A DNA stretch of 41,960 bases from a virus (taxonomy: Duplodnaviria; Caudoviricetes). A model generated the notes under the pieces. That model worked only from the letters and a program-made list of their open reading frames with translations. It was not told where the DNA came from and made no database searches. The translations under genes and the position numbers were made by a program. Location of the stretch: IMG/VR virus record IMGVR_UViG_3300037235_000027, positions 1 through 41,960 of that record; one strand, 5' to 3'. Each line of letters starts with the position of its first letter. Position 1 is the first letter of the stretch. Shown one piece after another: positions 16,456-36,956 of this stretch.

Positions 16456-16477
16456 AACGGTCTCTCCTAAATAAGAT

Positions 16478-16499
16478 GTAACATCGTAACATCGTTACA
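16478..16499 (-). repeat. 22-bp inverted repeat, right copy
   Basis: GTAACATCGTAACATCGTTACA on the + strand. Confidence 0.85.
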
Positions 16500-16552
16500 T
16501 CATTGGCACTATTGCCTAAAAGGATGAAACCGCCTCACAGGTCTATTCACAA

Positions 16553-16564
16553 TGTCAAACAGCA
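16553..16564 (-). promoter_or_regulatory. boxA-like antitermination sequence
   Basis: TGCTGTTTGACA on the minus strand, in the leader of the DUF3631 gene. Confidence 0.5.
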
Positions 16565-16607
16565 AGCCTGATAGTGTTCTCGTTTTGTTTCTTTTGGCCT
16601 AGACCCT

Positions 16608-16636
16608 ATTGTAACATACTTTCGGATCTGACGCAA
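16608..16636 (-). promoter_or_regulatory. sigma70-type promoter of the DUF3631 gene
   Basis: TTGCGT-17 nt-TACAAT; shares TTGCGT and GAAAGTATG with the ligase promoter. Confidence 0.7.
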
Positions 16637-16740
16637 ACCCAGCATAAATAGTGGCGCAACAATGGTGATGATATCTGATAATTGAACATGAGAGATTTGT
16701 GCATGGATTTTGAATCGCCAGAATGCGTCGAAAAAAAGGC

Positions 16741-16769
16741 TTGCCTTCCTTCGCGATTTCGGCTAGACT
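16741..16769 (+). promoter_or_regulatory. sigma70-type promoter of the long rightward operon
   Basis: TTGCCT-17 nt (TCCTTCGCGA...)-TAGACT preceded by an A-tract. Confidence 0.7.
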
Positions 16770-16777
16770 ACCCTCTA

Positions 16778-17333
16778 GCCCGCTATAGGCGCGGGCGAGG
16801 ACTATTTGATCTGACTTCTACTGCGGTTACACTTGACATTCCGCCGAAAGCGGTTCCTGCGGTTTTTGACAGATCCTACTACATGCTGTTTGAAATTCGA
16901 GAGTAGACTTATGCTGGCCGGGCTCGTCCGTGTTCGGGGCCACATTGCTGCGTGAATCAACGCGCAGCAAGTTGTAACGTGAGCAGTAAAGCTATTACTT
17001 GTGAAAGAGCGTAAGTATCACGGGGTTGCGAAGAACAACGCTCTGATACGAAAGGCAAGCGCGCGACAAGTTGCCTGAGGATGTTTGACCAGCCTTAGAT
17101 GCAGGAAAACAGATTTGACGAACTCATGTAACACCCTGTTGAGCCACAAGCAAGAGACAGTGTTTTGAGGGTGCAAACTGGACGGGAACAAAAACCGTAC
17201 GTGGCGAGCAAGGGAACATCCGAAACCCAGACATTGTGCGATAGTGTCTGGTGACCCAAGAATCAAAGACAGCAATACAGAGCACAGCGGGATGAAATAA
17301 CTCCTGCTGTGTTCAATAGTGCTGTCAGCACTA
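16778..17333 (+). ncRNA. large structured leader/ncRNA of unknown class
   Basis: No credible ORF; about ten helices found by eye, including long-range GGATGTT/AACATCC; starts at the predicted +1. Confidence 0.6.
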
Positions 17334-17348
17334 GAAAGGAGAATCAAA

Positions 17349-17786
17349 ATGTCTTATAGAAGTAAAAAGATTCAGAAAGAAAAGCATGAATCGTATTCTG
17401 CGTCATTGCGACAAATAGTTCTCTCAACAACGAGAGATCGTCTGCCACAACAAGACGGATATATTGTGGCCAACAGCGCAAGAATGAAGCGTTCTAAGTG
17501 GCGTATAGCAATTGATCCAGAAAATAGCAAGAAAACGCGAAAGGTTTCAGGATTCAGAATTAAGGTTAAGATTAAGGATACTGATAAAGTTCATAAATAT
17601 AGAGATAACGATCAGAATTTAGGATATATCAGCAAAAAGAAGTATTATGGTAGATTTACAACTAATCCAAAGACCACAGGGCGCGTCTTAGCAGTTATTG
17701 AACAACCAAAGCAAGCTGCGCCTCAAGATTCAGAATATATGCAGATTGATGGTATAACCATCGAAGCAGAGTACACTGAGGAGTAA
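17349..17786 (+). CDS. highly basic hypothetical protein
   Basis: AAGGAG RBS before ATG 17349; K/R-rich. Confidence 0.75.
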   Translation: MSYRSKKIQKEKHESYSASLRQIVLSTTRDRLPQQDGYIVANSARMKRSKWRIAIDPENSKKTRKVSGFRIKVKIKDTDKVHKYRDNDQNLGYISKKKYYGRFTTNPKTTGRVLAVIEQPKQAAPQDSEYMQIDGITIEAEYTEE

Positions 17787-17945
17787 GTAACATGCGTGTG
17801 AAACACTTCGTGCCTTCTAATCAACCTGAGCAGAAGCGCACCAAAATAGAGATTGAACTGCGAATGATGAATAATCGCAGAAAGAAGAGAGGACCCATAA
17901 CACTAAAGCAACTGAACTTCACAAACAAACAACAGGAGAAGTAAA

Positions 17946-18278
17946 ATGGCCGTATATGCGTTTGGACACCCAGGAAAATGGTGGGCCGATGTAATGGGTA
18001 CCAGATACCCTTGCGTTGGCGCAATGCGAATAAAGGATAACCACTACCAACAAGCGTATTCTCTTGATAAAGAGAAGTCGTGGAACCTCATAGAGCAAAT
18101 TGAGGAGCTTCAAAAGGTTATAGTCAGAGAGGAAATACTGCAAGCCAATGGCATCTATAAAGTGATAGGGTATGTTGGCTTATTTCACGTACTCAATTTT
18201 ATAGTAACAATTACTGATACTCACAAGATCGTTGACTTCGATCTTGGTCCGAAAATTGTTACGATCAAAAACCGCTAA
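17946..18278 (+). CDS. hypothetical protein
   Basis: CAGGAGAAGTAAAATG initiation motif. Confidence 0.75.
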   Translation: MAVYAFGHPGKWWADVMGTRYPCVGAMRIKDNHYQQAYSLDKEKSWNLIEQIEELQKVIVREEILQANGIYKVIGYVGLFHVLNFIVTITDTHKIVDFDLGPKIVTIKNR

Positions 18279-18293
18279 CCACAGGAGAGTAAA

Positions 18294-18533
18294 ATGAACA
18301 TCGCAAAGCAACTGACTGAAGACCAAATGTTAGCATACCTTACCCTAAAAGGTGAGGGTAGGCATATCTCACAGGAAATAATTAATGAGATAGGCCGTAA
18401 AGCTGCAGTGAAGCTTATGAAGTTCAGAACTATCCTAAATAAGGATCAGGATTTAGGATGGAAGATTGAAAGTGATGAATCTGATCCCGCCAACAAGTAT
18501 CCGCGATATTTGATATTCACCAAAACAAAATAA
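18294..18533 (+). CDS. hypothetical protein
   Basis: CAGGAGAGTAAAATG initiation motif. Confidence 0.75.
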   Translation: MNIAKQLTEDQMLAYLTLKGEGRHISQEIINEIGRKAAVKLMKFRTILNKDQDLGWKIESDESDPANKYPRYLIFTKTK

Positions 18534-18590
18534 GATCGAAACAGCCAGTGCGATTGGCTGTCCTAGCGTTTGGCGCTAGCTGATGAGATC
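18534..18590 (+). ncRNA. hammerhead ribozyme type II (HH1)
   Basis: GATC-GAAA-[CAGCCAG/TTGGCTG]-TC-[CTAGCG/CGCTAG]-CTGATGA-GATC; GUC cleavage after 18562. Confidence 0.93.
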
Positions 18591-18608
18591 AGTAGCAGGA
18601 GAAGTAAA

Positions 18609-19028
18609 ATGAAGATAGACCTTAACATACACATCATGTCGTGGATGTGTCGCGAAGATGATGTCATCGACCCAGATCTTATCCAACTAAAGAACAATCA
18701 CGAACAAATGATTGTGGATGTTACAGAAAGGATATCAATAAGATTTGATTATCCGCTTTCACATTCTGTTTTGCTACAGTTTGATGGCAAGAAGCCGTGG
18801 AGACTAGCAGATATAATTGATGCTATCTGCGCAGGATATGTGAAGATATATGACGAAGAAGATGAAACAAGAACGCTTCCAGCTAGTGCTCCGTTGGATT
18901 CGATTCTGGTTAATCGTCCGAAAACTGACGGCAAGCACGGCATCTGGGGACACATTCTTAATGATCTCTATATTGAGAGCGTGTACAAAGGATCAGACGG
19001 TGTTTGGTTGCTTGATATTGGATCATAA
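18609..19028 (+). CDS. hypothetical protein between HH1 and HH2
   Basis: CAGGAGAAGTAAAATG; C-terminal GIWGHILNDLYIE. Confidence 0.8.
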   Translation: MKIDLNIHIMSWMCREDDVIDPDLIQLKNNHEQMIVDVTERISIRFDYPLSHSVLLQFDGKKPWRLADIIDAICAGYVKIYDEEDETRTLPASAPLDSILVNRPKTDGKHGIWGHILNDLYIESVYKGSDGVWLLDIGS

Positions 19029-19089
19029 GACCGAAAGGGTGGCGCCACAAGCGCCATTCTCCTAGCGTTAGGCGCTAGCTGACGAGGTC
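19029..19089 (+). ncRNA. hammerhead ribozyme type II (HH2)
   Basis: GACC-GAAA-[GGGTGGCGC/GCGCCATTC]-TC-[CTAGCG/CGCTAG]-CTGACGA-GGTC; CUC cleavage after 19061. Confidence 0.93.
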
Positions 19090-19108
19090 AGTAACCAGGA
19101 GTAGTTAA

Positions 19109-19324
19109 ATGGCACAGGTATATTGGAGCAGCAAATTGCCGTCCAAAGACGATTTTGGTGACACATATGTTGGCATCATGATCGACGGTAAAACTAAAAT
19201 GGGACCATGGGCTAACATGACTCCTACAAGTTGGAAACGTCATGGTATTGGCCGTCTCGGAACTGGCTATGGCCAGAAGTACAAGAGGCAGGCTGATGGC
19301 CGCTGGCTCAAAGTGGAGGGTTAA
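19109..19324 (+). CDS. hypothetical protein
   Basis: CAGGAG RBS; DGKT..GPWANM...GLG.G.GQKY pattern. Confidence 0.75.
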   Translation: MAQVYWSSKLPSKDDFGDTYVGIMIDGKTKMGPWANMTPTSWKRHGIGRLGTGYGQKYKRQADGRWLKVEG

Positions 19325-19325
19325 A

Positions 19326-19676
19326 ATGGCAAGCGTCAAAGTTAAACGAGGATCTGAAGGTCCAGAACACGATCCGTATGCTTTTACGGAGATCACTTTC
19401 TACTTCACCGATCCTGAACGATCAAAAGTCGTTTATCACAGAGGATTAGGTGAGTGGCTCAAATATGATGGTCGAAAATACGACGAAAGTGACGATTGGT
19501 TACCATCGTCAATTGACTATCTATTTAAGCACATAACTGGACTTTCAGTTAGAAAGGCTGAAAGCATTCCAGATATGCTGTTTGAGCGCTCCATGCGGAA
19601 ATATTCCAAAGAAGAGCGCTGGCAGATTATGGAATGCATCGAAGCCGATGAAGCCATGCTCAGAAATTGCTATTGA
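19326..19676 (+). CDS. hypothetical protein
   Basis: GGAGG RBS before ATG 19326. Confidence 0.7.
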   Translation: MASVKVKRGSEGPEHDPYAFTEITFYFTDPERSKVVYHRGLGEWLKYDGRKYDESDDWLPSSIDYLFKHITGLSVRKAESIPDMLFERSMRKYSKEERWQIMECIEADEAMLRNCY

Positions 19677-19680
19677 AATA

Positions 19681-19728
19681 ATTGAACTTAGTGGCGCCAC
19701 AAGCGCCACTCTTTTAGGCAATTTTGCC
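19681..19728 (+). repeat. two-hairpin intergenic element, copy 1
   Basis: ATTGAACTT-[AGTGGCGC/GCGCCACT]-CTTTTA-[GGCA/TGCC]. Confidence 0.75.
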
Positions 19729-19745
19729 AGACTGAGGAGAGTAAA

Positions 19746-20051
19746 ATGAGATACGTTGTTATCAATAGAGCATGTGATGGTACCCATGTTTCAACACATG
19801 CTACGCTTAAAGGAGCGCAGAAGCGTGTGGAAAATATGGTTGGTAAAAGAGAAACGCCATTTCTAGTTGATGTGTCGTATATCTCTGATTGGGGTAATGT
19901 CCTCACAATCGAGGAGCGTCCAGGCAATTGGACTGCGAATACTGAGCGGCGTGTTTCCGAAGCTTTTGATGCTAACGAATGTGGTTTTGCAACAAAAGCT
20001 CAGATCAGGTTGTTGCATGATAAGGGCTTTTTAAGAGAGGAGACTGAATGA
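19746..20051 (+). CDS. hypothetical protein
   Basis: AGGAGAGTAAAATG. Confidence 0.75.
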   Translation: MRYVVINRACDGTHVSTHATLKGAQKRVENMVGKRETPFLVDVSYISDWGNVLTIEERPGNWTANTERRVSEAFDANECGFATKAQIRLLHDKGFLREETE

Positions 20052-20260
20052 ATAATAATCAAGAGTTTAGTATTTGGATGTCAAAGGTAGAATTTTATCT
20101 AGAATCAATGATCAAGAAGTCGTCGCCAGAGTTTGAGTCATACGATTATCATGGCGACTTCAAGAGAGGGGTTCTACCTGAAGATACGGCAACTATCATA
20201 ATACAAAGGAGTGTACAAAATGGCAAAGAAAGATCCATGGATAATATGTCCAGTATGTGA
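20048..20260 (+). CDS. hypothetical protein
   Basis: ATGA coupling, GAGGAG RBS. Confidence 0.6.
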   Translation: MNNNQEFSIWMSKVEFYLESMIKKSSPEFESYDYHGDFKRGVLPEDTATIIIQRSVQNGKERSMDNMSSM

Positions 20261-20519
20261 AGGTGAAGGAAAGACAGTCAATCCGAATATTGACGCAAAC
20301 GGATTGACTGCGGAAGACTTCAATGAAGATCCAGACTTCAGAGAAGACTATATGAGCGGCGTATATGACATTACGTGCGCTGCATGTGGTGGTCAACGCG
20401 TCATCAAGAAGCAGCGAATGAAAGAGCTTGCGCAAAATGCTGAAAATCGTCGTTTGGCAGCGCGCGAAAATGGCGATTATGAAAGCTACAGCGTAGCGCA
20501 TGATTGGAGGTATGGATAA
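20220..20519 (+). CDS. CxxCxG zinc-binding protein
   Basis: CPVCEGEG...GVYDITCAACGG; AAGGAG RBS. Confidence 0.75.
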   Translation: MAKKDPWIICPVCEGEGKTVNPNIDANGLTAEDFNEDPDFREDYMSGVYDITCAACGGQRVIKKQRMKELAQNAENRRLAARENGDYESYSVAHDWRYG

Positions 20520-20698
20520 TGCATATTTTCCTTACCATAATTGTTATCATTGTAATAGTGGTTGTTTTTAGCAACCTAAACCAACAAGGAATGATAACAG
20601 CTTGGAAAGGCCCAAATAACAATCTTGGTTGCATACCATTATTGTTAGTATTCATATTTACTATTTGGGTCCTATGCCAATTACCAGTAATACATTGA
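20519..20698 (+). CDS. small two-TM membrane protein
   Basis: TAATG coupling; two hydrophobic segments. Confidence 0.6.
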   Translation: MHIFLTIIVIIVIVVVFSNLNQQGMITAWKGPNNNLGCIPLLLVFIFTIWVLCQLPVIH

Positions 20699-20747
20699 AC
20701 TTGGTGGCGCTCTTGTGGAGCGCCACTCTTTTAGGTCATTTAGGACC
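20694..20747 (+). repeat. two-hairpin intergenic element, copy 2
   Basis: ATTGAACTT-[GGTGGCGCTC/GAGCGCCACT]-CTTTTA-[GGTC/GACC]. Confidence 0.75.
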
Positions 20748-20764
20748 GTAACCAGGAGAGTAAA

Positions 20765-21022
20765 ATGGATAATCCTACAGTAATGATAGAAATAGAAGTG
20801 GATGCAGTACAAGAAGCTATCCAAACAATCCGAAAAATCAATGGCAAGATTTCTTGGGTTTTGGAAAATAATCCACCATCCAATCAAAAGGATCTTGATG
20901 CTCTACAGTATCGCAACGCCAATCTTACTTTGGTTGAGTTGCGATTGACCAAAGCATTGAGCGATAGAGCTTTGGCCAATCAAGCCAATGGCAATGTCGT
21001 TAGGATGGGAGGCAAGAAGTGA
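20765..21022 (+). CDS. hypothetical protein
   Basis: CAGGAGAGTAAAATG. Confidence 0.75.
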   Translation: MDNPTVMIEIEVDAVQEAIQTIRKINGKISWVLENNPPSNQKDLDALQYRNANLTLVELRLTKALSDRALANQANGNVVRMGGKK

Positions 21023-21264
21023 GAAAGGCTCTATTGGCAGAATATAAAGTCAAGCCAAACGGCACTAAACTCCTTGATGATTTCAGAGGAGACAGAATTT
21101 ATGGTAATTGTTATATTATCATAAAGGCTGGCGTGGAAATCTATGAGGTTATTACCTCAACGCTGGGTGATTGGTGTAATTGCCCAGCCGGACAACATGA
21201 GAAGAAGTGCAAGCATCTTCTTATGGTTTATGATTACAAGGAAAAGGAAGAAAAGGTCATATGA
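21019..21264 (+). CDS. SWIM zinc-finger protein
   Basis: CNCP...CKH. Confidence 0.7.
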   Translation: MRKALLAEYKVKPNGTKLLDDFRGDRIYGNCYIIIKAGVEIYEVITSTLGDWCNCPAGQHEKKCKHLLMVYDYKEKEEKVI

Positions 21265-21485
21265 AATACAATGCGAGGTGTACGCTCCAAGCAGTACACA
21301 TGAAAACTGGTAAAGTAATCGAAGTGTGTCAATTTGATTCCGAAGTAGGAACAAATCCAATTCTTATCGAAGCTGAATCGCAAGAAGAAGCAGATGAGAA
21401 ATGGTCCAAAAGATGTATGCTTGAAGCAATGACAACAGGTGCGCTCCAAGCAAGAAAAGATTTCCAGAAAGGAAAATGGAAATAA
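21261..21485 (+). CDS. hypothetical protein
   Basis: ATGA coupling; TAA abuts HH3. Confidence 0.65.
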   Translation: MKYNARCTLQAVHMKTGKVIEVCQFDSEVGTNPILIEAESQEEADEKWSKRCMLEAMTTGALQARKDFQKGKWK

Positions 21486-21545
21486 GACCGAAACTGGCCG
21501 CAGTGATGCGCCCAGTCGTTGCGTATTGCGCAGCCTGACGAGGTC
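21486..21545 (+). ncRNA. hammerhead ribozyme type II (HH3)
   Basis: GACC-GAAA-[CTGGCCGCA-GTGA-TGCGCCCAG]-TC-[GTTGCG/CGCAGC]-CTGACGA-GGTC; GUC cleavage after 21517. Confidence 0.93.
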
Positions 21546-21565
21546 AGTAACCCAAGGAGACGTTA

Positions 21566-21709
21566 ATGGGCGACCCAGAAGAGCATAAAGAGGAAGAGTT
21601 GACTGTAAAATCTGATGCTCCAAAGGAAGAAGGTCCAAAAACAGAACCAGAAGAAAAAGAGGCGGATCCAGTTCGCCCAGGAGAAGGCGGACAACCTGAA
21701 GTAGCGTAA
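21566..21709 (+). CDS. acidic disordered peptide (47 aa)
   Basis: Manual ORF MGDPEEHKEEEL...PEVA, AAGGAG RBS. Confidence 0.65.
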   Translation: MGDPEEHKEEELTVKSDAPKEEGPKTEPEEKEADPVRPGEGGQPEVA

Positions 21710-21717
21710 AGCGAGTC

Positions 21718-21758
21718 AACTTGCCGCTCCCACGCTCCCGTGTGGGAGCGGTCTTTTA
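21718..21758 (+). terminator. AACTT-hairpin-CTTTTA element
   Basis: GCCGCTCCCAC/GTGGGAGCGGT followed by CTTTT. Confidence 0.65.
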
Positions 21759-21771
21759 CTAGGGATGGAAA

Positions 21772-22023
21772 ATGATAAACATAAAAGAAATCACTTCTAT
21801 GAAAGAGTTTGCTATCATAAGAAGTGCTCTGGAACTATATGTTGCTACTCTGAGTGAAGAGTACGACAGTAAGCAAACACGCCTCAAACTTAAAAAACTT
21901 GAGAAAGCGCAAAAGTGTCTGAAAGACTTCAAACAACTAGGAGAACAAAATGGTAAGACTGTATCAGTTGACACTAAAGCCCTGCCATTGCGGCAGCGGA
22001 CTGGAAAGAGAAGCGCGTTATGA
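21772..22023 (+). CDS. hypothetical protein
   Basis: Operon packing. Confidence 0.55.
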   Translation: MINIKEITSMKEFAIIRSALELYVATLSEEYDSKQTRLKLKKLEKAQKCLKDFKQLGEQNGKTVSVDTKALPLRQRTGKRSAL

Positions 22024-22216
22024 TGCGCGCGGTATCTTCCTCACATACGTGTGCGAGAAGTGTGTGGAAGAAAAACTTGGCAAGTTTCGCCCGGAAGTTC
22101 TAACTGATCCTAATTATGATCTTATGGGAGAAGAGTTAGATGATGATGGAGATATCGCAGATTCTGATATTCATCGTAATCTTCCGGATTTTCCAGATCC
22201 GAATGTTAAGAGATGA
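21950..22216 (+). CDS. Cys-containing hypothetical protein
   Basis: AGGAG RBS; CHCGSG...DARGI...CEKC. Confidence 0.7.
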   Translation: MVRLYQLTLKPCHCGSGLEREARYDARGIFLTYVCEKCVEEKLGKFRPEVLTDPNYDLMGEELDDDGDIADSDIHRNLPDFPDPNVKR

Positions 22217-22563
22217 AAACTCTCACGCTGATATGTGCGCTGCTTATCACAAGTAGCGTCAAAGCGCAAGCAATATGCGATTTTGAGCATAAATGCTACA
22301 ATGGTGCGCCACCACCGCAAGTATATCATAATCTAAACGGAGACGTGATACCGCCTCCGGCTCCTCAATATCCAAAACCTGTTCCATCTTCGCCACAGGT
22401 TACAATATCAGGCAATATTTGCAAATTGGCTAAAATAAAAGAAGGGCCTGATTTACCAGCACGTATTGTTGAGATTTGCACGATGTCTGATGAAGAAGAA
22501 AGAGCCTATCGTGAAATGGCTCGTATGCGTCAGGCATCAATTCCTAGGTTCCAACCGTATTAA
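22213..22563 (+). CDS. secreted Pro-rich hypothetical protein
   Basis: Signal peptide MKTLTLICALLITSSVKA. Confidence 0.65.
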   Translation: MKTLTLICALLITSSVKAQAICDFEHKCYNGAPPPQVYHNLNGDVIPPPAPQYPKPVPSSPQVTISGNICKLAKIKEGPDLPARIVEICTMSDEEERAYREMARMRQASIPRFQPY

Positions 22564-22620
22564 AGGATCACCTGGTCTAATTCAACAGCCCCCCGGTTGT
22601 TATAGGCCAGGTGTAGACTT

Positions 22621-22657
22621 GCCGCCAGGATTTGTAATGAGTACCTGGCGGTTTTTT
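22621..22657 (+). terminator. intrinsic terminator
   Basis: GCCGCCAGG/CCTGGCGGT followed by a T-tract. Confidence 0.75.
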
Positions 22658-22676
22658 GTCAATTTAGGAGGCAGTA

Positions 22677-22889
22677 ATGGCAACCTATTACTATTCAATG
22701 TTAGGAATGGTAAGAGTTAGACAGCTTCCAGATAAATGGGTGCTTGAAGTATCTTACAAGGATGAAGATATTCAGTCTGGACAATATAAACATGACCAGA
22801 CATGGTACCCAGCAGGTGAATGTAAAAATCTCATAGAAGTAGGTGAACTCGTTTTGAGCCTGTGCAAAGAGGAGACCAAACGTGTTTAA
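22677..22889 (+). CDS. hypothetical protein
   Basis: AGGAGG RBS. Confidence 0.7.
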   Translation: MATYYYSMLGMVRVRQLPDKWVLEVSYKDEDIQSGQYKHDQTWYPAGECKNLIEVGELVLSLCKEETKRV

Positions 22890-23098
22890 ATCAAGGAGGA
22901 AAGAAAGTGGTTGAGCAAAGGCGTTATATGAGTATCGTAATCGCCATCCTCAGAGAGGAAGGTTTGTACAGTATTGCCATGTCTAATGATCTGTATATGT
23001 GGATCAATAAGCGTATCAGTGAGAACCATCAGAAAGGTCTCACTGTACTAGAATGTGTGAAAAATATCAAAAAGGAACTGCAACATGCCAGAGCATAA
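22862..23098 (+). CDS. hypothetical protein
   Basis: Operon packing; true start likely a GTG near 22907 behind AGGAGG. Confidence 0.55.
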   Translation: MQRGDQTCLNQGGKKVVEQRRYMSIVIAILREEGLYSIAMSNDLYMWINKRISENHQKGLTVLECVKNIKKELQHARA

Positions 23099-23453
23099 AC
23101 TGCCAAAGCGTTTAAAGCTTCCAGTAGTTCCGATAGAAGGTAACTTCATGTTTATAATTAAACCTGAAGATACCCAATTTGCTGAAGGGAAGATATTGGA
23201 GACTTTACCAGATGTTGATATGCTTACATTTGGAGTTGGCGGTCTATTAGAAATCATACCTTTGTTCACTAAGTTTGGTGGACGTCCATGTGTTGCTTTC
23301 TGTAATGAAGAAGGCAAATTATATGGACTTCCTCCTAATCATCTAGCCCATATGCTTTGGGAACAAAACTTGGGGCGCATCATAACTGAGGATCAACTTG
23401 TCGGAAATGTGGTGGTTGTTGTAGGCTCTCCGTCATTTCTCAGGAGGATGTGA
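23085..23453 (+). CDS. DUF3846-like protein
   Basis: VGGLLE...CNEEGK...LPPN..A...LVGNVVV. Confidence 0.75.
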   Translation: MPEHKLPKRLKLPVVPIEGNFMFIIKPEDTQFAEGKILETLPDVDMLTFGVGGLLEIIPLFTKFGGRPCVAFCNEEGKLYGLPPNHLAHMLWEQNLGRIITEDQLVGNVVVVVGSPSFLRRM

Positions 23454-23755
23454 TGAAGAAAATCTTTATCATAACTCTAACCATAGGAATGATAAATGCA
23501 GCAAATGCTCATTGTTACTCTCGCTGGTATTATCCGTTCCCTCAAAATTGTGGAGTCGCTTATCGCAGCCACTCCCACCAAATGGCTTTATTACAGCTTG
23601 ATACCATTCCTCCTGTTCGTCCTGTTCTTATTGATTTCCCATTACCTGATTTGAGCGGAATTTGGATCAATTCGACAGAAACTCCAGAACAATTAGAATT
23701 AATGGAAGCAATGGATAGACTCAAAGCTATTAAAATATTATCAAATAATAATTAG
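23450..23755 (+). CDS. secreted hypothetical protein
   Basis: Signal peptide, then HCYSRWYYPFPQNC. Confidence 0.65.
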   Translation: MMKKIFIITLTIGMINAANAHCYSRWYYPFPQNCGVAYRSHSHQMALLQLDTIPPVRPVLIDFPLPDLSGIWINSTETPEQLELMEAMDRLKAIKILSNNN

Positions 23756-23778
23756 CCAATTTGGCAAGGAGACTAGTT

Positions 23779-24111
23779 ATGGATAAGAAACAACTCAAGG
23801 TAGTTGCTGATGCCAAAGGAGAAATTGAGGATGCAAAGGAGAAAGTTTCCAATTTTATCGATGAAATCATAACAAAGACAATAGATCCAATGATAGAAAA
23901 CATTGGAAATCTGCAAGATGAGCTGCAAGCACAGTTTGATGAGCTTTCTGAGAAGCAACAGGAGGGTGACAAGGGGACTAAGCTCACAGAAGAGATCGAA
24001 GCTCTTGGTGAACTTAAAGATGAACTTGATACGTTCAAAACAGAGTTTGATGACACTGCGTTCGACGATATCATCGCTAAGTTTGATGATGTCCCAGGAA
24101 TGTCAGAATAG
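23779..24111 (+). CDS. acidic coiled-coil protein
   Basis: AAGGAG RBS; FDELSEKQQEGDKG. Confidence 0.7.
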   Translation: MDKKQLKVVADAKGEIEDAKEKVSNFIDEIITKTIDPMIENIGNLQDELQAQFDELSEKQQEGDKGTKLTEEIEALGELKDELDTFKTEFDDTAFDDIIAKFDDVPGMSE

Positions 24112-24191
24112 TTTTGCTTGACGTACCAGCCTAAAAGTTACCCCCTATTAGGTTGGCGTTGATATAGCACAGTCAACGAAAGTCAGGCAAT

Positions 24192-24234
24192 GGGTGGGAG
24201 GGCGCTTTTCCAAAACCGGCGTCCTCCCATTTTT
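24192..24234 (+). terminator. intrinsic terminator
   Basis: TGGGAGGGCGC/GCGTCCTCCCA followed by T5. Confidence 0.65.
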
Positions 24235-24246
24235 ATGGAGAAGAAA

Positions 24247-24477
24247 ATGAACACACTCGATATTCTGAAACAATATAAGGATGGATTAGTAATAAAATGG
24301 AATAATTCTATATGGGTTGTTAGAGCAGATGGAGATCAACCATCTTTATGGCCTGTTGCAATTGTTGAGCGCAACGAACATGGCCAACTAAAATATATAA
24401 TTCCCAAAGGAACTGATATTGCTAACGCCAATGCAGTTCTTGCTTCTATCACCGGAATAAATGACTTCTTCGCATAG
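24247..24477 (+). CDS. hypothetical protein
   Basis: GGAG RBS. Confidence 0.65.
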   Translation: MNTLDILKQYKDGLVIKWNNSIWVVRADGDQPSLWPVAIVERNEHGQLKYIIPKGTDIANANAVLASITGINDFFA

Positions 24478-24486
24478 GAGCGCCAC

Positions 24487-24729
24487 ATGTCTGAAGGTCC
24501 AGGAAGATATGACGCTGAAGCCTCATGGGTACAGAAGCGCACCAAAGCACATGGTGTGTTATTAATGATAGTAGGCGGTAATAAAGGGAATGGTTTTTCA
24601 TTAGCTAGTTATGATATCCAAGCAACATTGGAAATTACATTATCATTACCAAAATTATTAAGAGAAATGGCAAATCAAATCGAATCTGACATAAAGGAGC
24701 AAAGTTTTGGCAAAAACCAAACCAACTAA
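24487..24729 (+). CDS. hypothetical protein
   Basis: AGGAG RBS. Confidence 0.7.
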   Translation: MSEGPGRYDAEASWVQKRTKAHGVLLMIVGGNKGNGFSLASYDIQATLEITLSLPKLLREMANQIESDIKEQSFGKNQTN

Positions 24730-24946
24730 CGAACAGGTACAATTCAGATTGATACAAATGCCATGTTGTGGCATATTAATATGTTGGGTCAATCCACGCA
24801 GACCAATGTATTGTCCTGAATGTGGAACAAGAGTATTCAATCATTTCCCTAAAGGAGAATGGGATACGTACTTTTCAGTAGCTTGGTTACACGTCGAAGA
24901 TTATGATAAAGCAACATGGGACAGAAGAAATGAAAAAGAAATCTGA
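24707..24946 (+). CDS. Cys-rich hypothetical protein
   Basis: PCCG..CWVNPR.P.YCPECG. Confidence 0.7.
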   Translation: MAKTKPTNEQVQFRLIQMPCCGILICWVNPRRPMYCPECGTRVFNHFPKGEWDTYFSVAWLHVEDYDKATWDRRNEKEI

Positions 24947-25172
24947 GCATGACGAAAAGACATGCTTTCGTTGCAGACTTCACGCACTATTTGAAGAAAT
25001 ATATCCAAAAGGTATTGGTGATGATGAAAGATTTATATTGACTACACTTGCTGAAGCAGTAGGTCAACTATTAGCGAATAAGGATGAGCGTGAAGCAGCA
25101 TACTTCATGTTTGCAGTAATGAAGTTTATGCAAGAAGATGAAGAAGACGACGAAACACCCACCGAACACTAG
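24930..25172 (+). CDS. hypothetical protein
   Basis: Operon packing. Confidence 0.6.
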   Translation: MKKKSEHDEKTCFRCRLHALFEEIYPKGIGDDERFILTTLAEAVGQLLANKDEREAAYFMFAVMKFMQEDEEDDETPTEH

Positions 25173-25181
25173 GAGAGAACA

Positions 25182-25469
25182 ATGTCACTGTTTGAAGAAT
25201 CAACAGACGATTCTGAACGGCTTACATTTCATCCAAATGGAACAGCAACAGTAATTAGACTGTCACCATGGACTGGTAAATTCAATAAAATAACTCTTCA
25301 ACTTACTGAGGAACAATACAATAATTGGCGCAACAAACGCATGTTGATACAAGATGCGATGCCTCATCTTGATAAGGAGGAACGTGAGTTCCTAATGACA
25401 GGATATACGCCTACCGATTGGGCGACAATATTTCCTCCAGACGAAGACGAGGATGATAAAGACGTTTGA
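25182..25469 (+). CDS. hypothetical phage protein
   Basis: AGGAG RBS; LIQDAMPHL...EREFLMTG.TP..W. Confidence 0.75.
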   Translation: MSLFEESTDDSERLTFHPNGTATVIRLSPWTGKFNKITLQLTEEQYNNWRNKRMLIQDAMPHLDKEEREFLMTGYTPTDWATIFPPDEDEDDKDV

Positions 25470-25480
25470 TGGGGGAATAG

Positions 25481-25681
25481 ATGAAAACATCTCCATGGAA
25501 CAGAAAACTCCATAAATATTTAATGGCTAATAGATATAAATACACTCAACATTATCGTTACGATAGATATGACAAAGGTAAGATAACCATATTCTATTAT
25601 ATCAATAACTATATAATGATTCTAGAGGGAGGAGAACCAGCATCAAAAGAGATAGTACGTGAAATAGAAAATGTACTCTAA
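25481..25681 (+). CDS. hypothetical protein
   Basis: Operon packing. Confidence 0.55.
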   Translation: MKTSPWNRKLHKYLMANRYKYTQHYRYDRYDKGKITIFYYINNYIMILEGGEPASKEIVREIENVL

Positions 25682-26705
25682 CCAGGAAACTAAAATGTAT
25701 CTCATGGATCATATAATAGAAACAGTTCACGAAGCTAAAAAGAGACGATTGTTGAATCATCCAGTCATAAGTGTCTTCCCAATATTGGAAGAGAAACTGA
25801 GAGGATGTCCACGTTTCTTATTTGATGAGAACTCAATACATACAGCAGTTGAACTTACTCTGGGGCGCCCCAAAGTGCTCAGAGAAGCTATGGCGCACCT
25901 TACCATACCTTATTCAAGAATGTGGATAGAATGGCCAGAATCTGGCAGAGAAAGATTGAGGCAAACATTCTCAATAGATGCTTTTGAGCATCCAAATAGA
26001 CCTTTACCAACACGTCTTGGCTTCTTGTTAGAAGCAGATGAAGCTGGTAGAAAAGGAATGGTTACTTGGGTATGGAGTAATCATTTTATCAAAAAGGGAG
26101 AACCACCTAATGTGTGCCCAATATCTGCTTTCTTTGATCTCGATTTTGATTACGGAAAGTTATCCAATTCGCATATGTCAAGTTTTTTGGATGCAAACTT
26201 AGCACATATTTGGAGAAACAAACCAATTCAGTTAGCTGCGCTCCAGAGTATATGGGATACCGCAGTACACAAGCCATCCGATTGGGGTATGAGATTTCTG
26301 GAACTTCCTACTCCAACATCTCCGTTTGGACACACCAATAGTGAAGTGGCCAATTTCTACGCAGATGTTTATGGTGAATATATTATGGTTTGGTCTTGTT
26401 TAATGCTTCTTACCAGTTCTAGGAAGATCATAGATCTAGAAGAAGTTGACATGTCTAAACTTAATCAGATTCGTAAAAGAATGAACAAACCTGTAAAGCT
26501 GGACCATACTGTAGTGAGCATGTATATTAATCAAGATGTTCATATACACAAGCCAGGTGTGCCGTTAGGATTTGATAGAAAGAGTCCTCGAATTCATATG
26601 GTTTCTCGCTATCTAAATAGACGTGGCGATAAACATTGGATAGTGGAGCCTTTCTGGCGCGGCAAAGGTGAAGTCATTAGCAGACATGTGAAGGTTAAAG
26701 TTTAG
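25671..26705 (+). CDS. hypothetical phage protein (344 aa)
   Basis: Long ORF; PY..MWIEW and C-terminal SPR.H.V...W.V.PFWRG. Confidence 0.8.
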   Translation: MYSNQETKMYLMDHIIETVHEAKKRRLLNHPVISVFPILEEKLRGCPRFLFDENSIHTAVELTLGRPKVLREAMAHLTIPYSRMWIEWPESGRERLRQTFSIDAFEHPNRPLPTRLGFLLEADEAGRKGMVTWVWSNHFIKKGEPPNVCPISAFFDLDFDYGKLSNSHMSSFLDANLAHIWRNKPIQLAALQSIWDTAVHKPSDWGMRFLELPTPTSPFGHTNSEVANFYADVYGEYIMVWSCLMLLTSSRKIIDLEEVDMSKLNQIRKRMNKPVKLDHTVVSMYINQDVHIHKPGVPLGFDRKSPRIHMVSRYLNRRGDKHWIVEPFWRGKGEVISRHVKVKV

Positions 26706-26714
26706 GAGCGCAAC

Positions 26715-26990
26715 ATGACTTATGAAGTAGTATCATTTACCGGCGATTTCCCATTAGCGCATCAGCCTAATTGGGATGTCCAATATGTAACAAGAGCAGA
26801 AGCTATCAAAGAAGGTAGACTTCAGCATGAACTGTTCAACATAGAACAACATAATGAACATTATACTATGGTGTTAGATTTAGACAAAAATGAAGAAGAA
26901 GAAGTAGCATGGATAATTTATCAAGATAAAGAATATGTAGGACTTAAAGCTCAAAGACTTGCTGATGATTTAGCAGGAGAATGTACGTGA
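26715..26990 (+). CDS. hypothetical protein
   Basis: AGGAG RBS. Confidence 0.7.
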   Translation: MTYEVVSFTGDFPLAHQPNWDVQYVTRAEAIKEGRLQHELFNIEQHNEHYTMVLDLDKNEEEEVAWIIYQDKEYVGLKAQRLADDLAGECT

Positions 26991-27187
26991 CAGCAGACGA
27001 ATATGAGTATTTTATCAAACAAATAAATCCTAATTGTTGGAAAATCTATAAGGTGGATGGACATTATAAAGAACCAACTGATACTTATACAGTTATGCTA
27101 ATACGAGGCAGTTATCATTGTGATTGTCCATCACCAAGGGCATGTAAACATATGGAAATGGTCAAACCCAAGAAGGATCTATTTTAA
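26981..27187 (+). CDS. SWIM zinc-finger protein
   Basis: CDCP...CKH; ends KKDLF. Confidence 0.7.
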   Translation: MYVTADEYEYFIKQINPNCWKIYKVDGHYKEPTDTYTVMLIRGSYHCDCPSPRACKHMEMVKPKKDLF

Positions 27188-27420
27188 TGAAATGTCCTTA
27201 TTGTAATGGAACTGGAGAATTAATAAATCCTGAAGTTGGCGCACTCATTCTTTTGGCGCGCCAAGCTAAAGGCATGACACAAGAACAATTGGCCATAGGC
27301 GCAAGCTTATCACGAGCTCAAATAGCTAATATTGAAACTGGTAAATCAGATATACCAACAAAAACTTTAGCTCGAATTGCCCAAACACTCGGTGTTTCTA
27401 TGAAGGATTTAGTACCGTGA
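27187..27420 (+). CDS. XRE-family HTH regulator
   Basis: RQAKGMTQEQLA...LSRAQIANIETG...IAQTLGV. Confidence 0.85.
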   Translation: MKCPYCNGTGELINPEVGALILLARQAKGMTQEQLAIGASLSRAQIANIETGKSDIPTKTLARIAQTLGVSMKDLVP

Positions 27421-27926
27421 AAAGACAATGTGGTGACTGTACTCTGTGCTGCAAGTTAGTTCCAGTCAAAGAGATAGATAAGCCAGCTAATACCCGTTGT
27501 AAGCATCAACGTCAGATAAAAGGTTGTCTTGTTTATCATACAAATAAAATGCCATTTTCTTGTCATGTTTGGAATTGTCGTTGGCTTGTTAATGATGATA
27601 CGCACAATTTGGCACGCCCAGATAGATCGCATTTCGTCATAGATATAATGCCAGATTTTGTTATTGCCTTAGATGGTGATAAGAAGATTCAAATTCAAGT
27701 AGTCCAAATTTGGTGTGATGCTAATTATCGAGATGCTTGGAAAACTCCAAGTATGCATGACTATATGATGCGCCGTGGCGCAGAAGGAATTGCATCTATG
27801 ATTCGTTATGATTCATACGATGCAATCATTGTTATCCCTCCTAATATGAACTCCGAAAAGAAATGGATGATTAGGTCGGGTGACATGCGAGAGAAGACTG
27901 AGTTAGTCAAACTATTGGAGAAATGA
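27417..27926 (+). CDS. YkgJ-like cysteine cluster protein
   Basis: CGDCTLCCK...C.H...GC..Y...P..C..W.C.WL...RPDRS. Confidence 0.75.
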   Translation: MKRQCGDCTLCCKLVPVKEIDKPANTRCKHQRQIKGCLVYHTNKMPFSCHVWNCRWLVNDDTHNLARPDRSHFVIDIMPDFVIALDGDKKIQIQVVQIWCDANYRDAWKTPSMHDYMMRRGAEGIASMIRYDSYDAIIVIPPNMNSEKKWMIRSGDMREKTELVKLLEK

Positions 27927-28372
27927 TGGTAAAGTATAAACGAGGTTATGAACATTTATACAGGAAACATCCACGTCATTATAGTAATCAATTACCAGCA
28001 TTAACTGGTGAAATTTCAAACGAAACTATGATTAGAAGAAAAAATAGAGAATGGTTATATTTAAGAGAGCCTCCAGAAGATAATGAAGATGATTGGTATT
28101 TTTGGTGTGATTTTCATAAAGTAAAATTATGGACAGATCTAATATTTTGTCACAATTGCAATAAAATAATTAATCCAAACCATCATTATAATGGGAGTAT
28201 GGTACCAAATTTATTGCCAGCAAGAATACGATATTCAGTACCTGAAAAAATTCTCTGTCAAAGTTGTACAGCAAAAGAAAATTATCAATATTACCAAATG
28301 GAAGAGATTACGAAACTCACTAGGGAGATTCGTAATATGACGAGGAGAAGCAAACGTGGGAAAAAAGAATAA
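27923..28372 (+). CDS. CxxC hypothetical protein
   Basis: CHNC, CQSC; AT-rich. Confidence 0.6.
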   Translation: MMVKYKRGYEHLYRKHPRHYSNQLPALTGEISNETMIRRKNREWLYLREPPEDNEDDWYFWCDFHKVKLWTDLIFCHNCNKIINPNHHYNGSMVPNLLPARIRYSVPEKILCQSCTAKENYQYYQMEEITKLTREIRNMTRRSKRGKKE

Positions 28373-28607
28373 TAAACCAAGACAGATCGTAAATGACACT
28401 CGTGGTTTACGATGGTTACTTCTAGTCTGTATAGATGATCTTGCGAACAGCAGGATCACACCCAACAAGGCAAACGCAATGTCCAATGTTGCAAATTCTA
28501 TCATGGACACAATGCGTTTAGAGATGGTATCCACTAGGATTGGCAGTTCTGATGGATACGCACCTCTGATTCTAGCTAACGTTCCAGAAGAGATCGAGGC
28601 TAGTTAA
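28356..28607 (+). CDS. hypothetical protein
   Basis: GAGGAG RBS, GTG start; convergent overlap with primase. Confidence 0.6.
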   Translation: MGKKNNKPRQIVNDTRGLRWLLLVCIDDLANSRITPNKANAMSNVANSIMDTMRLEMVSTRIGSSDGYAPLILANVPEEIEAS

Positions 28608-33275: not shown

Positions 33276-33707
33276 ATGTCTGAAGAAAATGTTGAGCGCG
33301 CAACACTAGAAATTGAAAGCCTAATCAAAAATGAAGCGACTAGGCCAAGATTTCTACGCCAAATAGAGGCAATACCAATTAAAGAACCGGAACCAGTGCC
33401 ACAGCCTAAACCTGTAAAAATAGACCATACATACCTGCCTTTGGATGCTCTTGAGGAAGTATCACGTTCTCTTATGTATGGCGCCGCAAAACGAGAAGCA
33501 TGGAACTGGGCTGTAAATCCAATTAGTTGGACAGAACGTTTGGCTAAGGCGCAGCGCCACTTGTTTGAGTTCCAGAAAGGACATAATATTGATCCTGCTT
33601 CTGGAGAAGCGCAGCTTCAGCATCTTGCGTGCGCAATAACTCAACTTATGTTCTTGCAGTCATATGTTATAAATGACGCAGGAACGGACGATAGATTCAA
33701 GCGGTAA
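33276..33707 (+). CDS. dATP/dGTP diphosphohydrolase (DUF5664)
   Basis: LP.DAL.EV...L.YGA.K...NW...RHL..F..G..ID..SG...HLA.A. Confidence 0.8.
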   Translation: MSEENVERATLEIESLIKNEATRPRFLRQIEAIPIKEPEPVPQPKPVKIDHTYLPLDALEEVSRSLMYGAAKREAWNWAVNPISWTERLAKAQRHLFEFQKGHNIDPASGEAQLQHLACAITQLMFLQSYVINDAGTDDRFKR

Positions 33708-33820
33708 TATTTATGGCGCGATCAGGCTACAGAAGCTTGGTGAGTGGACCTTATGCTTCGAGGACTAATTCCAGGAAAGTGGGAGGCAGCTTTCACTGGC
33801 GCGCCTATTTGGAGGTTTAA

Positions 33821-34042
33821 ATGGATCATCATGAAGAGTTTGAATGTGAAGATTGTCATTGCCGTGTGTTTAGATGGCCACTCATTCCCAAACCAGAAAG
33901 TGGAATCAAACATAGCGCATTTAATGGAGATCGCTGTGCCGTTTGTCAATGGATACATGATCAACCAAATCTGACTGAAAAAGAAATAGCTGAGATACGT
34001 TTGATCACTGCTACACCAATCTTGGAGAAGAATGATGACTAA
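33821..34042 (+). CDS. CxxC hypothetical protein
   Basis: GGAGG RBS; CEDC, CAVC. Confidence 0.6.
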   Translation: MDHHEEFECEDCHCRVFRWPLIPKPESGIKHSAFNGDRCAVCQWIHDQPNLTEKEIAEIRLITATPILEKNDD

Positions 34043-34772
34043 AGAGGCTATATCAAAGTCTTATATGGATGCGCAAAAAATTCTCCATTCTGGAAAGCAA
34101 ACTCCGCCATTGATTGAAAGACTAATTGCAGTTACTGGCGCAGCCAAAGAGGGATCTATTGGTGAAGCTATCAAAGAAAGATTCACTGCTAAATCATTTG
34201 ACATAGAAGATGTTAGAGATGGAGAATACGATTTTACTGGTTTTACAGATTTAGTTATGTGTCATGGATACACATATATGGATTGGTTAGAAGAAGTTCC
34301 TGATGAGGAAGCTGAAAATATCATCAACATTAATTTATATGGATCTATAAGAGTGATCAAACAGTTTGTTAACCAGACTATAGATGAGCCATTTCGCAAA
34401 AAGATCATCTCTATAGGTTCAATGGCATATAATCATGTGCTTAATGGAAGTGCAGCATATTGCGCGTCCAAAGCAGGGTTGAATCATTACATTAGATGCG
34501 CTGCATGGGAGTTAGCGCCAAAAGCATATGATGTCTATTGCATTAATCCTTCCAATGTATTAGATAGTCCTATGACAAGAGATACTATCAATCATCTTAT
34601 GAACTATAGGCAATTAACTCTGGAACAGGCATTAGAATATTGGGGTGCAAATAATCCAAGAACAGTGTTTTTGACAAAGAATGAGATTGTAGATACAGTT
34701 CAACATTTGCTGTTTGTTGATAAAGGCTATCTTTCTGGAAATCCTATTGATTTAGCAGGTGGACAACGCTAA
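34032..34772 (+). CDS. short-chain dehydrogenase/reductase
   Basis: VTG...SIG, INLYG, IGS, YCASK (YxxxK), INP, G..I...GG. Confidence 0.85.
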   Translation: MMTKEAISKSYMDAQKILHSGKQTPPLIERLIAVTGAAKEGSIGEAIKERFTAKSFDIEDVRDGEYDFTGFTDLVMCHGYTYMDWLEEVPDEEAENIININLYGSIRVIKQFVNQTIDEPFRKKIISIGSMAYNHVLNGSAAYCASKAGLNHYIRCAAWELAPKAYDVYCINPSNVLDSPMTRDTINHLMNYRQLTLEQALEYWGANNPRTVFLTKNEIVDTVQHLLFVDKGYLSGNPIDLAGGQR

Positions 34773-35332
34773 TGTCTGATACAGAAGATGTCCGTGATAT
34801 GTTCGGATTCATAGCTCCGTCAGAGGCGCAGCTATCATCTATTTCTAAATGGGCACAAAAAGCCCTAGAGCTTCATGCTGAGATAGAACAAGCTGAAGCG
34901 CACCTTAAGGAGTTGAATAGAGAATTAGCCCAAATAGAAGAAATTGATCTGCCTAGAGCTATGATGACAGCAGGCTCTGCCGAATTCAAAATGGTAGGTG
35001 GTGGTAAGATAACTATTAGTGATGAGATTCAAGGCAGTCTTGCCAAAGGTGAAGAGAAACGAGAATATGCTATTGATTGGGTAGCTAAAAATGATGGAGC
35101 AGATCTTATTAAAAGGCATTTTGAAATTGACTATACAAGAGGTCAACTTTCCTATGCTACAGCATTTCGTGAACTTCTGCAAAAGAATCAAGTGCATTTT
35201 GATGAGTTCGAATCAATACATACCAGCACATTTAAGTCGTTCTTACATGAGAAGCTAAGAAAAGGTGTAATGCCACCTTTTGATAAGATGGGCTTTCGCT
35301 ACTTCAAAAAAGCTAACATCAAGACAAAGTAA
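34772..35332 (+). CDS. conserved phage replication-region protein
   Basis: Coiled coil, LP..M...G, IH..T..SF..E pattern. Confidence 0.75.
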   Translation: MSDTEDVRDMFGFIAPSEAQLSSISKWAQKALELHAEIEQAEAHLKELNRELAQIEEIDLPRAMMTAGSAEFKMVGGGKITISDEIQGSLAKGEEKREYAIDWVAKNDGADLIKRHFEIDYTRGQLSYATAFRELLQKNQVHFDEFESIHTSTFKSFLHEKLRKGVMPPFDKMGFRYFKKANIKTK

Positions 35333-35341
35333 GAGCTAGTC

Positions 35342-36223: not shown

Positions 36224-36483
36224 AAAAACATGGTCTAGGCGACGGTCCAATAGAACCAGAATATAAACAGAAAATGAATGAACTAGCTATGTTCATTGAT
36301 AGATACTTTAATGAGGATCCAAAAGATAAGAGAGTAGGTTTTTGTCTGATGGTCTTCAATTTTGGTGGAGGTCCTGGGCGCGCCAACTACATCTCCAATG
36401 CTGTTCGCAAAGATGTAGTCACATTGCTTAAAGAACAATTGGCTCGTTTTGAAGGTATGCCAGATCAAACAGGGAGAGCGTGA
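36208..36483 (+). CDS. hypothetical protein
   Basis: GF.L.VF.F...NYISN..R; operon packing. Confidence 0.7.
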   Translation: MDLQMKKHGLGDGPIEPEYKQKMNELAMFIDRYFNEDPKDKRVGFCLMVFNFGGGPGRANYISNAVRKDVVTLLKEQLARFEGMPDQTGRA

Positions 36484-36686
36484 TGACATTCGAGCAACTA
36501 CTAAAGAAAGCTGAAGAAGAAGCCAACGAGCATGAGTTGGTAACATTAGATGTTAAACAAATAAGAAGTTTTCTTGATGGACATAGTGTATTGGAAGAAC
36601 TTGATAGTGCTTTAGATTGGGCGCAAGGTGCAGTCCATTCTAAAGAAGTGAGAATTTCTTACATTCTTATCAAAGTAGTAGAATAG
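36480..36686 (+). CDS. hypothetical protein
   Basis: GTGA coupling. Confidence 0.6.
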   Translation: MMTFEQLLKKAEEEANEHELVTLDVKQIRSFLDGHSVLEELDSALDWAQGAVHSKEVRISYILIKVVE

Positions 36687-36695
36687 GAGGCAAAA

Positions 36696-36944: not shown

Positions 36945-36956
36945 TGGAGGTAGCAA

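Follow-up and report, generated by a model that had tools for sequence, protein, structure and literature searches.

Three hammerheads in a phage operon

Three type II hammerhead ribozymes, named HH1, HH2 and HH3, were identified between small genes of a virus of the Caudoviricetes (IMG/VR record IMGVR_UViG_3300037235_000027), where they are predicted to cut the transcript of the operon by self-cleavage. The window, meaning the whole stretch of DNA that was analysed, comprises the 41,960 bases of this record, which is about 50% complete and encodes a terminase, a portal protein, a primase, a DNA ligase and a thymidylate synthase. Self-cleavage of the operon transcript by the three elements was given a probability of roughly 0.72; a U1.7:A tertiary contact, a lock on the core after the cut and a stabilised, insulating leader are inferred parts of this reading. 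The elements lie in a run of small open reading frames (ORFs) on the plus strand (17349-28607 of the window), nearly all of them without a family.

Each element is arranged in the order stem II 5' arm, GAAA, stem III, UC, stem-loop I, CUGANGA and stem II 3' arm, and the core of CUGANGA, GAAA and UH is complete in all three copies. A structure scan found stems I and III closed by loops and stem II open, i.e. the type II permutation. Stems III, I and II contain 8, 7 and 4 base pairs (bp) in HH1, 9, 7 and 4 in HH2 and 4, 7 and 4 in HH3, where stem III is interrupted by an internal loop and the seventh pair of stem I is a U·G. On both strands of the window the scan returned exactly three type II hammerheads and none of type I or III. 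In 200 dinucleotide shuffles, loose matches averaged 0.03 per window and strict matches 0, and a chance origin of the three elements is excluded. The scan and the shuffles thereby confirmed the locations and intact cores proposed by an earlier sequence-only reading of this DNA, and the cut positions which it had predicted are the same as those derived here from the core (Table 1).

A covariance model built from 66 homologues, with the window copies left out, recovered all three elements at E values of 6e-12 to 2e-9. Neither the structure scan nor this model, which found nothing else below E 0.7, revealed further or degenerate hammerheads in the window. Detection with the Rfam hammerhead models, suggested as a check in the sequence-only reading, failed: no match was obtained in the window at E<=1 or in positions 18400-21800 at E<=10. 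Contigs of two public runs, X2 and X4, span the three elements with 0 differing letters, and X2 may have been sampled where the window was. At least half of the words of the window are found in each of two runs recorded as soil metagenomes, and one of them may be its source.

The TAA stop codon of the preceding gene ends directly before each element, which starts on the next base and is followed by AGTA, an AGGAG ribosome-binding site (RBS) and an ATG (18609, 19109 and 21566). The predicted leaders from cut to ATG are 46, 47 and 48 nucleotides (nt) long.

A pseudoknot-less subtype of type II hammerheads

Homologues were collected in four sequence-only pattern scans, and the matched loci were then checked for stems. 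A structured type II hammerhead was present in 89/92 and 115/129 viral loci, in 122/125 viral loci among the matches listed and in 38/44 genome loci. For one stem III length alone about 700 stored viral stretches were estimated, and the subtype occurs in genomes titled as several phyla. The first two scans yielded 232 distinct copies after 3 of 235 were dropped for short stems. Stem II measured 4 bp in 229/232 of them, and stem-loop I was 17 nt long in 97/118 copies where the pattern did not force this length. Among copies unselected for the respective base, position 1.7 was a U in 114/118 and the base directly 5' of stem II an A in 168/170. Bystander copies matching neither pattern (n=68) had U1.7 in 64 and the upstream A in 66 cases. 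All 4 copies that had lost U1.7 had an altered stem-loop I length, and 2 of the 4 had lost the A as well. The first base of the tail was a purine in 123/132.

In the alignment used for covariation (66 of 100 dereplicated copies of the third scan, among the matches listed, with rows pre-filtered for stems), 99.1% of the cells pair. Two-sided changes numbered 376 compared to 107.5 in shuffles and were found in 13 of the 17 pairs. Compensatory changes in all three stems had been proposed from the window copies; the three stems do covary among the homologues, but for stem III the comparison of the window copies does not hold, because their stem III sequences differ in length and compensation can be demonstrated only among homologues.

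Loop I is only 3-5 nt long, and no signal of a pseudoknot of at least 4 bp between loop I and the 3' tail was observed. The longest complementary run over the 232 copies averaged 2.78, compared to 2.69 (maximum 2.84) with shuffled tails, and the pseudoknot was rejected. By these comparisons the window copies are members of a large pseudoknot-less type II subtype that is mostly missed by Rfam. The model RF02276 found 3 of 70 sites in 20 related loci, and counts of phage hammerheads are therefore too low, since Rfam largely misses an abundant subtype.

In type I and III hammerheads (sTRSV, Schistosoma), U1.7:A(L4) is the minimal tertiary contact (O'Rourke et al., via PMC11875169), and U1.7:A is a conserved reverse Hoogsteen pair in hammerheads (PMC6155905). 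Figure S5 of PMC3088659 scores type II copies for U...R-A contacts. The subtype has in common with the type I/III contact a 4-bp stem II, U1.7, an A beside the GAAA-side strand and an opposite purine. Since this is the geometry of the contact in types I and III, a U1.7:A reverse-Hoogsteen contact across the open stem II is inferred. The A of the type I/III contact comes from a loop, whereas stem II of the window copies is loopless; the A stems from the upstream flank, in many cases from a stop codon, and the purine from the 3' tail.

No description of the pseudoknot-less subtype or of the core-sequestering hairpin treated below was found in the open-licence literature searched. Some members of the subtype may already be present in the type II alignment of PMC3088659 (Dataset S1, pp. 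990-998), and the text of PMC10085705 and PMC13725137 added nothing on the subtype.

Several other arrays were noted. In Caballeronia sp. LZ033, an isolate genome, three hammerheads of the same subtype flank small genes (L379:2998-4036), and loci L018 and L099 carry arrays of 8 and 9 hammerheads within 6 kb, mostly enclosing one gene per interval. Only 7/36 of the genes flanked in other arrays have a Pfam family. Type I and III hammerheads were seen in loci of the type II patterns (L057, L058, L066, L093, L096, L114, L167 and L169).

Stop codons at the 5' edge

The position of stop codons was studied in 125 copies unselected for TAA and with sufficient flank, of which 30 had no upstream ORF by the rule used. 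An upstream stop was located at -3..+1 of stem II in 80/125, compared to 1.2% of random positions. At +1 the stop was TAG in 34/35, and stem II then begins with its G; at 0 the stop was TAA in 8 and TGA in 5. TAG overlapping stem II was the commonest arrangement. A requirement for TAA was rejected, as only the A beside stem II is invariant. Because the A is invariant and the stop type variable, it is concluded that the ribozyme needs an A, which stop codons often supply. The frame of TAA, AGTA, AGGAG and ATG noted in the sequence-only reading is correct for the three window copies but fails as a family rule; judged from these homologues, the exact TAA...AGTA frame is a feature of the clade of the window and not of the family.

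A second hairpin predicted to sequester the core

In all three copies the core can pair alternatively with the stem II 3' arm and the tail (Table 1). Such a hairpin was looked for in homologues from the pattern scan in which the tail, N7 and stem II had been left free. A perfect complement of the own CUGAN was found in 32/129 tail-unselected homologues, compared to 1/129 with N7 swapped, and after dereplication in 17/95 compared to 1/95. TCAG occurred in 36/134, with 14.9 in shuffles. Among complements of 5-mers the start of the core alone stood out (20/108); other near-core 5-mers and CGAAA were not enriched (0-8/108). In a second register just after stem II, the complement was present on 8 stem II backgrounds, and of 23 pairs 21 were Watson-Crick, 2 wobble and 0 mismatched. 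The second hairpin is read here as an optional product lock and not as a ribosome switch.

Conservation and gene blocks in relatives

The related record G001 was compared with the window together with four further related records, five relatives in all, and these carry 3-7 hammerheads in the same region. HH1 (57/57) and HH2 (61/61) are identical in G001, compared to 55-91% identity for the ORFs neighbouring the hammerheads (147/265, 382/420, 161/227 and 305/351 identical); genes F3 and F14 reach 96% identity. HH3 is identical in 59/61 positions. In G001 (L401), the orthologue of HH3 has an extra U between CUGACGA and stem II, and the lock hairpin is kept.

Gains and losses of genes in the relatives proceed as blocks of a hammerhead with its genes. 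F59 is separated from F67 by one hammerhead in G004 and by a hammerhead, u82 and a second hammerhead in G005. Similarly, F12 is followed by a hammerhead and F14 in G002 and G005, compared to two extra genes and an extra hammerhead in G003 and G004. A hammerhead lies ahead of the 47-amino-acid (aa) ORF in all six records, the window included (6/6).

Proposed function and alternatives

Hammerhead cores cut after UH, leaving a 2',3'-cyclic phosphate and a 5'-OH. The predicted cuts would give a 499-nt piece with one gene and a 2456-nt piece with nine genes, in addition to the upstream and downstream parts. The cuts would not yield a separate message for each gene. With stem III upstream and stem I downstream, either product of a type II element retains a closed hairpin at the cut. 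The stem III hairpin would close the upstream piece directly behind the stop codon, and the downstream piece would start with a 5'-OH hairpin 46-48 nt ahead of the start codon. The hairpin-capped 5' end of the downstream pieces had been foreseen in the sequence-only reading and finds support in the computed folds of the predicted 3' products.

In place of a pseudoknot, the U1.7:A reverse-Hoogsteen contact would provide for fast cleavage, here with the A from the stop codon. After the cut, the 4-bp stem II would open and the core of the 3' product would re-pair as CUGAN/NUCAG; such refolding would render the cut irreversible and place a second, stacked hairpin ahead of the free RBS. A 5'-OH end is a poor entry for 5'-monophosphate-dependent decay. 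The standard stabilised leader would uncouple gene blocks from their neighbours as RiboJ does, and units of a hammerhead with its genes could thereby move in and out of the variable region; a gain in stability or translation of the cut products is proposed by analogy. Cutting of the polycistronic message with no need of protein, already put forward in the sequence-only reading, is the most likely function. In its favour, only 0.7, 2.0 and 0.2 kcal/mol separate the predicted active fold of HH1, HH2 and HH3 from the minimum free energy (MFE) fold, tertiary terms excluded. The idea itself is not new.

Several observations weigh against this explanation. In each of the three copies the MFE structure is the one that sequesters the core (pair probability 0.57-0.95), and cleavage may therefore be slow. 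Roughly between three quarters and four fifths of all family members lack the second hairpin, and the N7 pair is broken in 24/118 copies of the canonical register, some of them in the clade of the window. N7 lies within a few bases of its partner, and shared ancestry, gene conversion or template switching could therefore inflate their covariation. The U1.7:A contact is deduced from base conservation, and cleavage and the resulting RNA ends in this phage are predictions from its sequence and from homologues.

As a rival reading, cleavage could be switched by translation. The stop overlaps both the essential A and stem II on its 5' side; on terminating there, a ribosome would melt the ribozyme and free the core for the alternative hairpin, so that cutting would occur mainly when the upstream gene is untranslated. 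The closeness of stops to stem II in the homologues fits such a switch, as does the difference of 0.2-2 kcal/mol between the two folds. However, no association between the hairpin and stop proximity was observed in the dereplicated homologues, where copies with the hairpin were not more often flush with the stop (7/18 compared to 45/69), and HH1 of G001 is set 3 nt apart from the stop. Stops would be driven to the 5' edge of the ribozyme by genome compaction alone, and their abutment is explained equally well by compaction and by regulation. Gating by the ribosome is considered unlikely. Cutting might otherwise destabilise or down-tune parts of the message, for example in a timed shut-off of early genes, and not protect them. 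Cleavage of glmS triggers decay, and differing stability of cut products is an open possibility (PMC6765202). Against this, folding predicts a stable hairpin at the end of either product, and the RBS of the downstream piece stays accessible at a constant distance (46-48 nt); destabilisation is considered very unlikely.

That the elements serve mainly as DNA repeats for the recombination of cassettes, with incidental or weak cleavage, would agree with the changes of gene blocks at hammerhead boundaries in the five relatives. The stems, however, vary with compensation while the core is kept, which preserves the RNA structure and makes the copies less alike as DNA (74-91% identity across the best 34 nt), and this explanation is hardly to be expected. 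Cleavage followed by ligation into circular or spliced mRNAs is just as improbable. The piece between HH2 and HH3 has compatible stem II arms, GGUC of the HH2 3' arm being complementary to GACC of the HH3 5' arm, but the arms of HH1 and HH2 mismatch, and the lock hairpin would oppose ligation. In 22 arrays, compatibility of neighbouring stem II arms was at chance (52/71 compared to 49.2±2.1). Circularisation therefore receives no support from it, and selection for or against circularisation through matching of neighbours was rejected. Neither circles nor spliced products were found by Perreault et al. (PMC3088659). Self-cleavage into hairpin-capped messages is the explanation preferred here.

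Motif X, a second element in the same position

A different two-hairpin element, motif X, occupies the same slot from stop to RBS as the hammerheads (Table 1). Its small hairpin is GGCA/UGCC or GGUC/GACC and is followed by the RBS. Motif X is present in 5/5 relatives, and each of the 8 pairs predicted for its first hairpin shows two-sided changes. Upstream of F8 it occurs in the window and G001, where G003 has a hammerhead; upstream of F11 it again occurs in the window and G001, with a hammerhead in G002; and upstream of F9 it occurs in G003, with a hammerhead in G002. By these comparisons, motif X is interchangeable with hammerheads ahead of orthologous genes. Copy 1 has 24/27 bases in common with stem III of HH2 and its flanks.

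No Rfam match to motif X was found apart from a weak overlap with MicC at E 7.1. Among 100 loci, a model of the motif found loci of the clade only, and 4 of the pattern matches listed were AT-rich chance matches without the hairpin. In a terminator scan 2/3 copies passed, but the tract is only CUUUUA, conservation extends to both flanks and the second hairpin, and no promoter is evident ahead of the genes that follow. A leaky intrinsic terminator comes closest to an explanation, at slightly less than even odds, and a site for a host nuclease is a possibility of somewhat lower weight. A self-cleaving RNA is improbable, and equally so any other function. The location is of the kind where new ribozyme classes have been found. 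A more speculative and rather doubtful picture is that two RNA processors, able to replace each other, punctuate the variable early operon of the clade. The first would be a pseudoknot-less hammerhead that takes its tertiary adenine from the stop codon and whose product hides its own core in a hairpin, a natural self-resetting insulator that maybe also senses the terminating ribosome; the other would be motif X, cutting itself or being cut in the CUUUUA linker and leaving the same hairpin-capped ends. A CTTTTAGGCAAT..TGCC word on the minus strand at 16522 resembles the 3' half of motif X.

Neighbouring genes and other features

Table 1. Positions of the hammerheads, hairpins, genes and other elements in the window.
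Feature	Position	Strand	Remarks
HH1, type II hammerhead	18534..18590	+	stem II GAUC/GAUC; predicted cut after C18562; GUC triplet
HH2, type II hammerhead	19029..19089	+	stem II GACC/GGUC; predicted cut after C19061; CUC triplet
HH3, type II hammerhead	21486..21545	+	stem II GACC/GGUC; predicted cut after C21517; GUC triplet
Last A of TAA stop, invariant A 5' of stem II, predicted U1.7 partner	18533, 19028, 21485	+	A in 168/170 homologues
U1.7 of HH1, HH2 and HH3	18569, 19068, 21524	+	U in 114/118 homologues
Alternative hairpin CUGAU-GAG-AUCAG of HH1	18580..18592	+	core pairs with stem II 3' arm plus AG; MFE fold
Alternative hairpin CUGAC-GAG-GUCAG of HH2	19079-19091	+	MFE fold; covariation in homologues
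Alternative hairpin CUGAC-GAG-GUCAG of HH3	21535-21547	+	MFE fold; covariation in homologues
79-aa ORF ending at HH1	18294..18533	+	36% protein identity over 50 aa in G001
139-aa ORF between HH1 and HH2	18609..19028	+	predicted 499-nt single-gene message
Nine small ORFs between HH2 and HH3	19109..21485	+	function nearly all unknown
47-aa acidic ORF	21566..21709	+	hammerhead upstream in the window and in 5/5 relatives
Motif X copy 1	19680..19745	+	AUUGAACUU, GC-rich hairpin, CUUUUAGG, small hairpin, RBS
Motif X copy 2	20693..20764	+	same two-hairpin layout
Divergent motif X or terminator-like hairpin after 47-aa ORF	21713..21770	+	weaker copy; was in the training set of the model
Candidate operon promoter TTGCCT-N17-TAGACT after A-tract	16741..16769	+	putative; read by eye, below promoter-scan threshold

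The protein of 139 aa enclosed by HH1 and HH2 has no Pfam or PHROG family, and its matches are to unnamed viral clusters only. Between divergent units, positions 16456-17348 (about 900 nt) have no clear gene and contain the candidate promoter and a leader of roughly 580 nt. The words TTTGACA and TTTGAAA at 16864 and 16888, and on the minus strand at 16560, are presumably boxA-like.

A stand-alone PNKP-type HAD phosphatase (PF25109; 37884-38312) is encoded among genes of nucleotide metabolism; this class is able to heal 3'-phosphate ends, and a relation to the ribozymes is not implied. Genes for a dATP/dGTP diphosphohydrolase, a reductase-like protein, a flavin adenine dinucleotide (FAD)-dependent protein and Thy1 are grouped at 33276-37700, which suggests altered nucleotide pools or DNA modification. 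A phage-encoded RtcB ligase was found in 0/5 records, only one of which is near complete. There was no real match to cultured phages with similar DNA, and the terminase and Pam3-gp34-like matches had 26-34% identity, to phages of unrelated hosts.

Comparison with known systems

The early mRNA of phage T7 is likewise a polycistronic phage message punctuated at intergenic sites, in that case by RNase III. Processing of T7 mRNA by RNase III requires a host protein and leaves 5'-phosphate and 3'-OH ends. Hammerheads in phages had been taken by the sequence-only reading to be known as isolated elements, which understated the prior art. Natural type II hammerheads were described by Perreault et al. 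(2011; PMC3088659), who noted that in prophages a single gene or a short gene block is often flanked by several copies. The authors proposed that transcripts are thereby processed to mRNAs of operon or gene length; three tandem arrangements were reported to cleave in vitro and the Agrobacterium one in E. coli, and no circles were found. The idea of punctuation is thus not new, because it was proposed and tested for prophage triple arrays in that work. The arrays of Agrobacterium, Azorhizobium and Clostridium scindens likewise consist of several hammerheads flanking small phage genes, and the window fits this class of clustered prophage hammerheads, with terminase, portal, primase and ligase genes and with 3-7 copies in the window and its relatives.

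The type II consensus of PMC3088659 contains a pseudoknot between loop I and the 3' tail, which the window copies do not have. The main text of that paper contains 0 mentions of stop codons or Shine-Dalgarno sites, whereas the window copies are located between both, and the core-sequestering hairpin of the window copies was not found mentioned in the text. The Rfam family Hammerhead_II (RF02276) has the same permutation and core, but stem II of its model comprises 2 bp and loop I about 10 nt, compared to 4 bp and 3-5 nt in the window copies. The finding stands, with a layout that was already known; the pseudoknot-less subtype with a lock hairpin is a variant for which no description was found in the open-licence literature searched. 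Two reviews (PMC6765202, PMC6155905) restate the processing proposal of PMC3088659 and still regard the purpose of bacterial and phage self-cleaving ribozymes as open.

Three type II copies are reported to cleave in Desulfovibrio cells (PMC8782182). The uniform geometry of the subtype allows sharp tests with point mutants at U1.7, the upstream A and the AG tail, and the isolate genome of Caballeronia sp. LZ033, with its three copies, is a usable test system. The elements are in addition ready-made, sequence-diverse insulator parts of 60 nt. RiboJ, an insulator in which a hammerhead cut likewise leaves a fixed hairpin leader upstream of the RBS, raises mRNA about twofold and protein two- to tenfold (PMC6206723). 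RiboJ was engineered from sTRSV and is placed after a promoter, whereas the window copies are natural, of type II and intergenic, and would also cap the upstream piece with a 3' hairpin.

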